This document shows positions 13,526 through 15,178 of a DNA stretch of 64,000 bases, one piece after another. Source of the DNA: Staphylococcus phage Machias; the sequence record MW349128.1. The stretch is one strand, 5' to 3'. A program made the translations under genes and the position numbers. Position 1 is the stretch's first letter, and the number at the start of each line of letters is the position of its first letter. A model generated the notes under the pieces. It was not told where the DNA came from, searched no databases, and worked only from the letters and a program-made list of their open reading frames with translations.

Positions 13526-13784
13526 TGTTCAAAACAGTCTCCTCATAATGAAAGTTATGTTGAAAAAAATATTAATTGCTGGAAAGATTTATTAATCTAA
13601 TCAGCATCAAGTCTATAAGACTTGTTCAACGACTAAATATATTTTACCTTTTTATTGTAAAGGTAATGATATAGTCTGTGCTTCAAATTAATAATTTGAA
13701 GATTGTATAAAATATTAGATAAGAATTTCATATCTAAAAAATTTCCTAACATATTTTTATAATATGATTAGGAGGTGAAATTAA

Positions 13785-14987
13785 ATGATAAATAAAAACG
13801 GAAAATTAATTAAATCTTTCAAAACTAGAATATACCCAAATCAATTCCAAAAAGATTATTTCAACAAATGCTTTGGTGTAAGAAGAAAAGTATGGAATAT
13901 GGCTTTAGAAGATTATCAGAATAGAGATGATGATGTTAAATTCAGTGGTTTTGATTTTCAAAAGAAATTAAATAATGAAATATATAATTCTGGAGAACAT
14001 TCTTATCTTTATGAAGTTAATAGTATGGTTAGACAAGAAGCTTTAAAAGATTTAGATAAAACATTTCAAAAATATAGAGATGAACAGAAAAAAGCTAGAA
14101 AATCTAAATATGTTATTGACACTGAAAGGTTCAAGCCTAAATTCAAAAAGAAAAAACATTCTAATGAATCATTTAGGTTTATGGTTAAAAATAAAAAATA
14201 TCTACCTATTAAATTTATTTCAAAGAAATATATAAAAATAACTTCTATGGCTGGTATTAAACCTTTTATAATTAAATCTAAAGAATCAATGAAGTTTGTT
14301 AATTCTAATAACCATAGATTTCTTTCTTACACTATAAGTAGAAAGAATGAAAAATTTTACATCTCTGTTAATTATGAGATAAACAATTATAAGAAACAGA
14401 GAGAAAATAGTGATTCAATTGGTATTGATATGGGTATGAAAACTCCATTATCATGTGTTGATTCAAATGGACAAACATTTGAATTTAAAATTCCTCATAC
14501 ATTATGGAAACAAGAAAGAAAAACTGAAAAACTGCATAGAAAATTAGATAGTAAGAAATATTATTCAAAATCATATTATAAAACTTTAAAACAATTAAGA
14601 AAATCATATAATAGAGAACAGAATATATTAGAAGATTATAGAGATAAAATTACTAATTGGTTAGTTAAGAATTATAAAGTAATTAACATAGAACCCTATA
14701 CGCATAAATCAGGAGATAATTTAAGAAACGCTCGTAGATCTAATAGAAGATTCGGTAAATATGATTTTTTAGAGAAACTAAAATATAAAGTTTTACAATA
14801 CGATAATGAATTAAATATAATTACTAAGAAAAAGACTACTCAAACATGTTCTTCATGTGGATATGTTAGAACTAATAAAGAGAAATTAGTTCTAGGAGAA
14901 GATACTCATGATTGTCCTAATTGTGATGTAGTTCTTGATAGAGACTTGAATGCAGCTAAAAATATTCTAGATTTAAAGTACGTTTAA
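13785..14987 (+). CDS. tnpB: TnpB (IS200/IS605 OrfB-family RNA-guided nuclease-like)
   Basis: 400 aa; RuvC-I IGIDMGMKTP, RuvC-II VINIEPY, C-terminal CSSCGY...HDCPNCDVVLDRDLNAAKNIL zinc finger plus RuvC-III; strong GGAGGTG SD. Confidence 0.8.
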   Translation: MINKNGKLIKSFKTRIYPNQFQKDYFNKCFGVRRKVWNMALEDYQNRDDDVKFSGFDFQKKLNNEIYNSGEHSYLYEVNSMVRQEALKDLDKTFQKYRDEQKKARKSKYVIDTERFKPKFKKKKHSNESFRFMVKNKKYLPIKFISKKYIKITSMAGIKPFIIKSKESMKFVNSNNHRFLSYTISRKNEKFYISVNYEINNYKKQRENSDSIGIDMGMKTPLSCVDSNGQTFEFKIPHTLWKQERKTEKLHRKLDSKKYYSKSYYKTLKQLRKSYNREQNILEDYRDKITNWLVKNYKVINIEPYTHKSGDNLRNARRSNRRFGKYDFLEKLKYKVLQYDNELNIITKKKTTQTCSSCGYVRTNKEKLVLGEDTHDCPNCDVVLDRDLNAAKNILDLKYV

Positions 14988-15178
14988 TTTCACAAAATAA
15001 AAAGATATGAGAGTCGCCTGCGGTCAGCGGGAGACGATAAACGGGTGATAAGCTAATGTCTGATTAGCTTTACAAGGAGTGAGAAGGATCCTTCTCACGT
15101 TAGTCACTGAACCAAGTGTATTTTATACAAGGTCTTGCCTTTATATTTAATATATAAAATCAAGACTTAACAAGACAG
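14988..15178 (+). ncRNA. GC-rich structured RNA downstream of tnpB: candidate omega-RNA scaffold and/or intron P9-3' splice region
   Basis: Local GC far above background; hairpins GAGAAGGATCCTTCTC and AAGCTAAT-GTCTG-ATTAGCTT; ~97% identical to 37356-37552 whereas tnpB ORFs are clearly more diverged. Confidence 0.55.

Follow-up and report, generated by a model that had tools for sequence, protein, structure and literature searches.

A window of 64,000 nucleotides (nt) from the Staphylococcus jumbo phage Machias (record MW349128.1) was analysed, and positions 13526-15178 within it were found to be a discrete and precise insertion into a giant phage gene. This element has a group I ribozyme at its left end followed by a tnpB gene of the IS200/IS605 type, and its two ends are the splice sites, which is the structural definition of an IStron. 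An initial annotation had read the region as an IStron, and the ribozyme, the tnpB gene and the coincidence of element ends with splice sites support that reading. The explanation that we consider likely as a whole is an IS200/IS605-type IStron lacking TnpA, which would be removed from the transcript by splicing and spread by the RNA-guided homing activity of TnpB. The splicing, cleavage and homing that we infer for the Machias element are drawn by analogy from characterised IStrons with TnpB and omega-RNA, which splice and cleave DNA and in which a transcript follows only one of the two RNA fates (10.1101/2023.11.20.567912; PMC13521648).

The insertion and the interrupted giant gene

The TnpB protein encoded at 13785-14987 shows 100% identity with 'transposase [Staphylococcus phage Machias]'. 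Within the reference collection, vB_StaM_PB50 comes closest, with 96% identity across 25 kb, followed by the jumbo phages S6, PALS_2, MarsHill, Madawaska, DC4, AH12, LY01 and SA1. The genomes of these jumbo phages are presumed to contain deoxyuridine (dU) instead of deoxythymidine (Korn et al. preprint). Publications on the Machias-related jumbo phages mention introns, inteins and homing endonucleases and do not mention TnpB or IStrons, and the DC4 paper states that no introns were detected by Rfam.

Three open reading frames (ORFs) were listed in the region, at 10085-13600, 13785-14987 and 15179-16702. Joining 10085-13525 to 15179-16702 gives an open frame of 1654 amino acids, and the insertion divides the region into three parts:

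10085-13525, plus strand: 5' exon of a giant phage gene, 1147 codons (ORF list; joined directly to the 3' exon in DC4, PB50 and LY01)
13526-15178, plus strand: whole IStron-type element, 1653 bp, from the 5' to the 3' splice site (exact excision recreates the intron-less alleles)
15179-16702, plus strand: 3' exon of the giant gene, 507 codons plus stop (ORF list; alleles of relatives)

The junction created by excision, TTAGAT/ATGAAT, is contiguous in DC4 and PB50 in base-level alignments and likewise in LY01, and a query of 13300-15400 matched eight relatives as two abutting pieces that skip exactly the element. Counted together, all nine related phages have the two halves of the junction side by side. 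As the flanking bases at each boundary differ, neither boundary can be moved by even one base. The insertion coordinates and the in-frame fusion to 1654 amino acids given by the initial annotation are thus confirmed by the ORFs and by the alleles of the relatives, and the intron-less alleles that it had proposed to look for in related phages are present. Among the ten related genomes, only Machias carries the insertion at this site.

Several copies of the element were found at unrelated sites, two in the window and two in the LY01 genome, and these are the four copies compared throughout. Conservation across them is 0.55-1.0 within the element and 0.1-0.28 beyond both ends, and all four share the ends TGTTCA...ACAAGACAG. 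The LY01 copies are located at approximately 80914-82557 on the minus strand and at 134552-136201 on the plus strand, with the former site being empty in the window, in the giant gene at 16802-22045. A third Machias TnpB of the same family (P0004) is known here from the protein alone.

The spliced Machias protein would have 1654 amino acids, compared with 1671 in the uninterrupted homolog of LY01, 1999 in that of DC4 and 1998 in that of PB50. The C-terminal third of the giant gene is hypervariable among the relatives, as similarity stops about 140 nt past the insertion site and lengths differ by approximately 1 kb, a pattern typical of host-recognition proteins. Apart from a sub-threshold CBM_4_9 match, no family was found for the giant-gene product in Pfam or PHROGs. 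The gene upstream belongs to phrog_21032, a virion structural protein, and one peptide of the DC4 homolog of the downstream neighbour was detected in virions (PMC10638138). The initial annotation had called the host a virion structural gene, a role suggested by these virion-linked neighbours whereas the gene itself matches no family.

A reduced group I ribozyme and the copy in gyrB

The left end of the element and its flank contain the following parts of the putative ribozyme, together with the signals for tnpB and the right splice site:

13519-13701, plus strand: group I ribozyme P1-P9 (full-model match to RF00028; covariation in 40 cores)
13521-13525, plus strand: TAGAT, end of the 5' exon, pairing with the guide in P1 and presumed TnpB target-adjacent motif (TAM) (flanks of the copies)
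13522-13529/13533-13540, plus strand: P1 helix
13533-13540, plus strand: internal guide sequence AACAGUCU (pairs with exon AGAU and intron UGUU)
13544-13559, plus strand: P2 helix
13567-13572/13639-13644, plus strand: P3 helix
13577-13582/13601-13606, plus strand: P4 helix
13585-13598, plus strand: P5 helix
13608-13624, plus strand: P6 helix
13631-13635/13672-13676, plus strand: P7 helix
13645-13665, plus strand: P8 helix
13681-13701, plus strand: P9 helix
13702-13784, plus strand: peripheral P9.x hairpins at 13717-13735 and 13745-13772 (by eye; block conserved in the four copies)
13770-13775, plus strand: Shine-Dalgarno sequence of tnpB, AGGAGG (read from the sequence)
15178, plus strand: terminal G (omega-G), 3' splice site and right end of the element (read from the sequence)

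A motif search yielded 40 paralogous cores, six in the window and 34 in LY01, which were aligned with MAFFT. The structure P3-P8, including the P3/P7 pseudoknot, was compared with controls in which the pairing partners were slid by 1-3 columns and with 500 shuffles. Bases were paired in 94.7% of the cells of the alignment (30-45% in the slid controls), with 228 double-sided changes (32-71 in the slid controls) distributed over 21 of the 34 pairs. Covariation was observed in P3, P4, P5, P6 and P8, P7 being uninformative because it is invariant, and the observed covariation score was reached by none of the 500 shuffles.

In a scan of 291 nt, the RF00028 (Intron_gpI) model matched 13519-13701 over its full length (1-253) with 42.5 bits and an E-value of 7.9e-10, the gathering score of this family being 50. 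There was no Rfam intron match in a scan of the whole window at the gathering threshold or in a 2.1-kb scan at E<=10, and since the same model matches on the 291-nt stretch, the null result on long stretches is an artefact of filtering. Of the 34 cores in LY01, which lie in one 259-kb genome and often in clusters of three to four (40412-41094, 137594-138791, 232911-233607), none was detected by Rfam at default settings.

In P1, exon AGAU and intron UGUU pair with the guide, placing a U13525·G13537 pair at the 5' splice site. The exon and guide change together, with AGAU facing GUCU in the copy at 13526 and GGAU facing GUCC in the other three copies, and exon UGGU pairs with guide GCCA in a metagenomic relative (L029). 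The 5' flanks of the four copies are TTAGAT, TCGGAT, GCGGAT and CCGGAT, and the empty alleles retain GAT. At the other end, ...GACAG is common to the four copies and six metagenomic relatives, and the sole candidate for P9.0 has three base pairs (UGU 13677-13679 with ACA 15175-15177). In the window copies, the interval from P3' to P7' holds just one hairpin, and P9, P9.1 and P9.2-like hairpins are present.

The group I core claimed by the initial annotation is therefore upheld by covariation and by P1, with the Infernal/Rfam match being significant but below threshold and obtained on a short stretch only. Its assignment to subclass IA2 is not supported for such a reduced ribozyme, as the pair P7.1/P7.2 is missing and a single hairpin takes up the P3'-P7' interval. 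The 5' part of the element reads as a streamlined group I ribozyme that would be expected to splice.

The sequence AACA-TATTTT-TA (AACA-N6-TA) at 13748-13759, upstream of the tnpB Shine-Dalgarno sequence, is conserved in the four copies and matches the late-promoter consensus A-11ACA-(6N)-U-A/G+1 of the AR9 non-virion RNA polymerase (PMC5449584). If genuine, it would allow tnpB and the omega-RNA to be transcribed from within the element, though so simple a motif could also arise by chance.

The second copy in the window, which had been missed in the initial annotation, interrupts gyrB:

35828-35899, plus strand: gyrB exon 1, 24 codons, ...LEGLEAVRHRSD (sequence)
35900-37552, plus strand: second copy of the element, 1653 bp, 84% identical, with tnpB at 36150-37355 (blastn, tblastn, Pfam)
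37553 onwards, plus strand: gyrB exon 2, MYVGAIDG... (HATPase_c, DNA_gyraseB and Toprim domains)

Exon 1 encodes MTSTYSGSNIKHLEGLEAVRHRSD, and the insertion cuts the conserved N-terminal motif LEGLEAVRxR..MYxG. The joined gyrB junction gave a single uninterrupted match in nine Staphylococcus phages and is also spanned in the Bacillus phages AR9 and PBS1. Because the fragment is only 24 residues long and the cut falls within a GyrB motif, function in the unspliced state is implausible and splicing would be effectively obligatory. The gyrB copy is therefore the strongest in silico argument that splicing is required.

Further introns and an intein were observed in the window. A very small ORF-less group I intron of 177 nt occurs in gyrB at 38996-39172 (RF00028, 35.1 bits, E 1e-7), between a Toprim exon (...ITSDAD) and an exon starting DDGLHIQ..., with boundaries placed by eye from the frame and P1. 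Three tandem ORF-less cores of this intron family (51476, 51659 and 51926) are found at 51459-52045, within the gene for the virion RNA polymerase beta-subunit, the first of them having no P8 hairpin; the homologous region of DC4 has about half this length, in keeping with alleles that lack the introns. The product of the gyrA gene (46096-49650) contains an intein (Pfam Intein_splicing, residues 127-490), which Korn et al. had already noted in MarsHill-like phages. A reverse transcriptase (RT) gene located at 27310-28863 (RVT_1, E 7e-21) is the 'retron-like RT' noted for these phages.

TnpB, the 3' RNA and the absence of TnpA

The remainder of the element consists of tnpB and a structured 3' RNA, whose predicted guide lies in the 3' exon:

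13785-14987, plus strand: tnpB, 400 amino acids, predicted IS200/IS605-type RNA-guided endonuclease (alignments to Pfam, NCBIfam and PDB entries)
14988-15178, plus strand: omega-RNA-like scaffold ending ...UUAACAAGACAG (fold z-score, covarying stems, identity block)
15000-15079, plus strand: invariant block of the 3' RNA (100% identity in the four copies)
15013-15035, plus strand: first stem of the 3' RNA (covarying stems)
15179-15198, plus strand: predicted omega-RNA guide, equal to the target in the intron-less alleles, ATGAATAGAACTAATCTGAT (from TnpB biology)
Flank plus guide match: candidate TnpB target, TTAGAT + ATGAATAGAACTAATCTG

The Pfam domains HTH_OrfB_IS605, OrfB_IS605 and Cas12f1-like_TNB were found in TnpB, and the NCBIfam model guided_TnpB (NF040570) scored 201.8 bits against a cut-off of 100. 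Neither of the type-specific models reached its cut-off, with IS200_TnpB at 169.8 bits (cut-off 425) and IS607_TnpB at 82.7 (cut-off 350). TnpB aligns end to end with ISDra2 TnpB (phmmer, E 9e-21), in an alignment that matches D215, E303 and D387 to D191, E278 and D361 of ISDra2, and the zinc-ribbon cysteines C355, C358, C377 and C380 (CxxC..CxxC) can be read from the sequence. None of the four copies has lost the catalytic triad or the zinc finger. The ratio of non-synonymous to synonymous substitution (dN/dS) among the copies is 0.10-0.21 at a dS of 0.5-0.75, which places TnpB under purifying selection and shows that the copies did not arise by recent duplication.

The region 14988-15178 has a GC content of 37%, rising to 47% at 15005-15120, compared with 24% for the window. 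Its predicted fold has a z-score of -3.5 and is better than those of all 200 shuffles (200/200). An 80-nt block at 15000-15079 is identical in the four copies although tnpB varies, and the scaffold stops exactly at the boundary of the element. The motif of the first stem, GTCGC-N5-GTC-N5-GAGAC-N-ATAAACG, retrieved eight metagenome contigs, and twelve related 3' RNAs from loci found by the motif or by the protein align with covarying stems, most of them ending ...TTAACAAGACAG. The same 5' stem motif directly follows a GC-rich, 26%-identical TnpB gene in a metagenomic contig (L019), which suggests that it may be a general feature of TnpB guide RNAs. We call the 3' RNA 'omega-RNA-like' because no curated family exists to which membership could be assigned.

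Only 83 nt separate P9 from the start of tnpB, too little for a tnpA gene within the element. A tblastn search for TnpA with a single Helicobacter pylori IS605 query, which has limited sensitivity and does not cover serine recombinases, returned only noise in the window, the LY01 genome and 12 metagenomic loci. Four other TnpB genes, 25-29% identical to the window TnpB, occur in LY01, and a 112-amino-acid ORF beside them that was checked as a possible TnpA had no Pfam match. The initial annotation had described a 400-amino-acid TnpB with intact RuvC motifs and zinc finger, a GC-rich structured RNA of about 190 nt running to the 3' splice site and a lack of TnpA; the residues and domain matches, the composition, fold and covarying stems, and the 83-nt gap with its search result agree with these descriptions in turn.

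TnpB homologs at 34-48% identity were found in metagenomic contigs only, and these relatives were recovered only by a metagenome scan and protein-cluster look-ups. A scan of IMG/VR with the TnpB query gave a single weak locus, 37% identical to a portion of TnpB, and no clade member, the same scan of 185,579 reference genomes gave no clade member, and scans of both collections with the omega-RNA motif gave no match. The neighbouring genes in the clade look phage-like, encoding a phage fibre repeat, a dCMP deaminase, a divergent DNA polymerase and a reverse transcriptase. In every relative with upstream sequence, the group I R and S elements lie 120-250 nt ahead of tnpB; a ribozyme so close to tnpB leaves no room for tnpA, which applies to 11 of the 11 clade members examined.

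Three relatives with TnpB proteins approximately 45% identical (L011, 2560-4350; L013, 2600-4342; L023, 2090-3834) share the layout of ribozyme, tnpB and omega-RNA. They have a P5 extension of about 130 nt and two hairpins before P7', and their ends, TGGG/...AAGACGG/, resemble those of the IS607-type group B IStrons. An IS607 type, which the TGGG...CGG ends of some relatives would suggest, was rejected as NCBIfam favours IS200/IS605 for all members tested. An RVT_1 gene adjoins the relative in another contig (L027).

Proposed homing, its alternatives and relation to known IStrons

The insertion has its ends at the 5' splice site (U13525 paired to G13537) and at the 3' splice site G15178. In the precursor mRNA, the first 180 nt or so of the element would fold into a compact group I ribozyme, which would excise the 1653 nt, join GAU/AUG and restore the protein of 1654 amino acids, and in gyrB would rebuild the N-terminal motif. 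Some transcripts would instead be translated into TnpB, with the 3' 190 nt or so kept as omega-RNA together with approximately 16-20 nt from the start of the 3' exon; from characterised IStrons, splicing and omega-RNA formation would be mutually exclusive fates of one transcript. TnpB with omega-RNA would then cut intron-less alleles that carry ..GAT and a match to the guide, either in related phages or in genomes that have lost the element, and recombinational repair off an intron-bearing genome would copy the element in. TnpB would thereby serve as the RNA-guided homing endonuclease of the intron.

The empty alleles have kept what such a nuclease would need, namely GAT and 14-18 nt of identity with the guide (the first 17 nt in PB50 and DC4, the first 14 nt in LY01). 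An empty site matching 17 of 17 guide positions is also present in S6. A TAM role for the GAT flank is suggested by known IStrons (10.1101/2023.11.20.567912). The 36 ORF-less paralogs end their exons in several different sequences, and the GAT flank is therefore not a trait of the whole ribozyme family. As thymine is thought to be replaced by uracil in these genomes, TnpB would have to read a ..GAU TAM and cut dU-DNA.

Several observations weigh against this explanation. Splicing, omega-RNA processing, the identity of the TAM and cleavage are all inferred, and the conserved GAT flank is equally well explained by an inherited guide GUC or by a TAM. The ribozyme has an unusually small size, P5 being short and P7.1/P7.2 missing, its RF00028 score lies below the gathering score, and no canonical P10 pairing was found by inspection in either window copy. 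Both 3' exons in the window start with ATG, so that the downstream part of the giant gene is possibly translated separately. Neither Rfam, which gave no match on the 3' RNA, nor another curated model identifies it as an omega-RNA. We know of no TnpB that acts on dU-DNA. Finally, the proposed mechanism does not explain how the element would reach entirely new sites without TnpA.

For this last step, one unlikely though conceivable route is reverse splicing into transcripts that match the 4-6 nt guide, followed by copying with a phage RT and recombination, with no involvement of TnpA. It would fit the four insertion sites, which share only xRGAT, complementary to the guide, as well as the RVT_1 protein encoded at 27310-28863 and the one beside the relative in L027. 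It would also agree with the failure of the single-query tblastn search to find TnpA in the window, the LY01 genome or the relatives, and with the lack of space for tnpA in the 11 clade members. However, this evidence is purely circumstantial, transposition of group I introns by reverse splicing has little direct support in nature, and a host TnpA acting in trans or an IS607-type serine recombinase lies outside the tests made, which include a tblastn search of limited sensitivity.

We regard it as distinctly improbable that the intron splices while TnpB and its omega-RNA no longer home and instead regulate splicing or dosage, act as a weapon on intron-less co-infecting phages or are silent on uracil-DNA. 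Purifying selection on TnpB shows that the protein has a function without showing which, and the insertion is unique to Machias among the ten related genomes, so that no sweep has occurred. The presumed dU substitution of the genomes (Korn et al. preprint) and the competition between omega-RNA formation and splicing in characterised IStrons (PMC13521648) would be in line with such a role as well. On the other hand, all four copies retain the catalytic triad and zinc finger, conservation is higher in the omega-RNA scaffold than in the coding sequence, and natural empty alleles keep the flank and a guide match of 14-18 nt, which is the configuration that homing needs.

A plain TnpB-only IS200/IS605 insertion without splicing, yielding polypeptides from 10085-13600 and 15179-16702 and leaving the ribozyme-like part as a relic, is very hard to sustain. 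In its favour, an ATG lies immediately 3' of the element, the upstream ORF extends 75 nt inside it to a stop at 13600, no intron was found by Rfam at the gathering threshold and P10 was not found. Against it, compensatory changes have preserved all the core helices across 40 paralogs, the guide co-varies with the exon, the ATG at 15179 has no preceding Shine-Dalgarno sequence and encodes a Met inside the protein where the gene is uninterrupted, and the sister copy splits gyrB after 24 codons within LEGLEAVRxR..MYxG, which would be unworkable unspliced.

Among the closest known systems is CdISt1/CdiIStron of Clostridioides difficile (group A, IS200/IS605-type), which has the same order of left-end group I ribozyme, tnpB and omega-RNA running to a right end that is the 3' splice site (PMC4227781; 10.1101/2023.11.20.567912). 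This comparison was made by description, and the closest solved TnpB proteins (e.g. ISDra2) are only distant homologs. CdISt1 is inserted after TTGAT and the Machias element also after ..GAT, both have U·G at the splice site, and both end in ..CAG (TCAG in CdISt1, ACAG in Machias). CdISt1 likewise occurs in multiple copies within ORFs, many of them without a functional TnpA. Group A IStrons insert 3' of TTGAT, ATTAT or TTTAT and end in TCAG (PMC4227781), to which the flanks TAGAT or CGGAT and the end ACAG in Machias and LY01 are similar but not identical. In contrast to the bacterial chromosome in which CdISt1 resides, the Machias element is found in a virulent jumbo phage; no tnpA remnants were seen in it or in the clade members, the ribozyme is much reduced and lacks P7.1/P7.2, and the flank is YRGAT rather than TTGAT.

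CboIStron of Clostridium botulinum represents the IS607-type group B, a group that has been reported in phage genomes too (PMC4227781) and whose ends are resembled by the TGGG...CGG ends of the metagenomic relatives L011, L013 and L023. The Machias TnpB favours the IS200/IS605 model over that for IS607 (169.8 and 82.7 bits respectively), its splice-site pair is U·G whereas that of CboIStron is G-C, and the element, with no room for tnpA, carries no serine-recombinase TnpA. The one TnpB locus inspected in C. botulinum phage c-st was considered as a phage IStron comparator and set aside, as it has no group I core and looks like an ordinary insertion sequence with a TnpA remnant.

Full-length homology with an aligned D-E-D triad and zinc finger links the protein to ISDra2 TnpB (PDB 8EXA, 8H1J), whose guide RNA is likewise encoded at the 3' terminus of its element and continues into flanking sequence, and whose TAM, TTGAT, ends in GAT. 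ISDra2 carries TnpA and has no intron, the reverse of the Machias element. The introns of T4 td (I-TevI), Twort and SPO1 offer a parallel, as they self-splice, interrupt essential genes of virulent phages and spread from one co-infecting genome to another by double-strand-break repair, with an ORF in a peripheral loop preceded by a sequestered Shine-Dalgarno sequence. Their nucleases are of the GIY-YIG, HNH or LAGLIDADG types whereas the predicted Machias nuclease is an RNA-guided TnpB. Unlike in introns with protein endonucleases, its target would be set by the flanking exon through the omega-RNA, and assembly of the nuclease would compete with splicing.

TnpB/omega-RNA IStrons have been characterised experimentally (10.1101/2023.11.20.567912), copies with ORF-B only and IStrons of C. 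botulinum phages have been documented (PMC4227781), and a 2026 review notes that TnpA-less IStrons could spread by intron homing (PMC13565253). The initial annotation had thus overstated how unusual a TnpB-only IStron in a phage is, since TnpB IStrons, TnpA-less copies and phage-borne IStrons had already been published. No paper describing the Machias element was found in our literature search. What looks new is a clade of phage-borne elements without TnpA that resides in virulent jumbo phages whose DNA is presumed to contain uracil. The clade is also distinguished by a minimal ribozyme shared with ORF-less introns (36 of the 40 cores counted in the window and LY01).

To our knowledge, IStrons are the one natural case in which a ribozyme, a transposon and an RNA-guided nuclease are combined in a single sequence. 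Work on them so far has dealt with clostridial chromosomal elements tested in E. coli. For annotation, the finding matters because standard pipelines label such genes 'transposase' and split the host genes, and Rfam at default settings misses all of the introns of this family, some 40 per genome. We tentatively suggest that these elements may form a stably TnpA-less clade of phage IStrons in which TnpB and omega-RNA would be the sole engine of mobility, acting as an RNA-guided homing intron among co-infecting virulent jumbo phages and perhaps reaching new sites by reverse splicing and a phage RT. Whether TnpB is active on DNA that contains uracil is a further question posed by the presumed base composition of these phages. 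As a virulent and culturable Staphylococcus aureus phage, Machias offers a ready test of TnpB as an intron homing endonuclease without a transposase, and since it carries intact TnpA-less copies in gyrB and the giant gene while its sequenced sister phages have corresponding empty sites, simple phage crosses could address homing.

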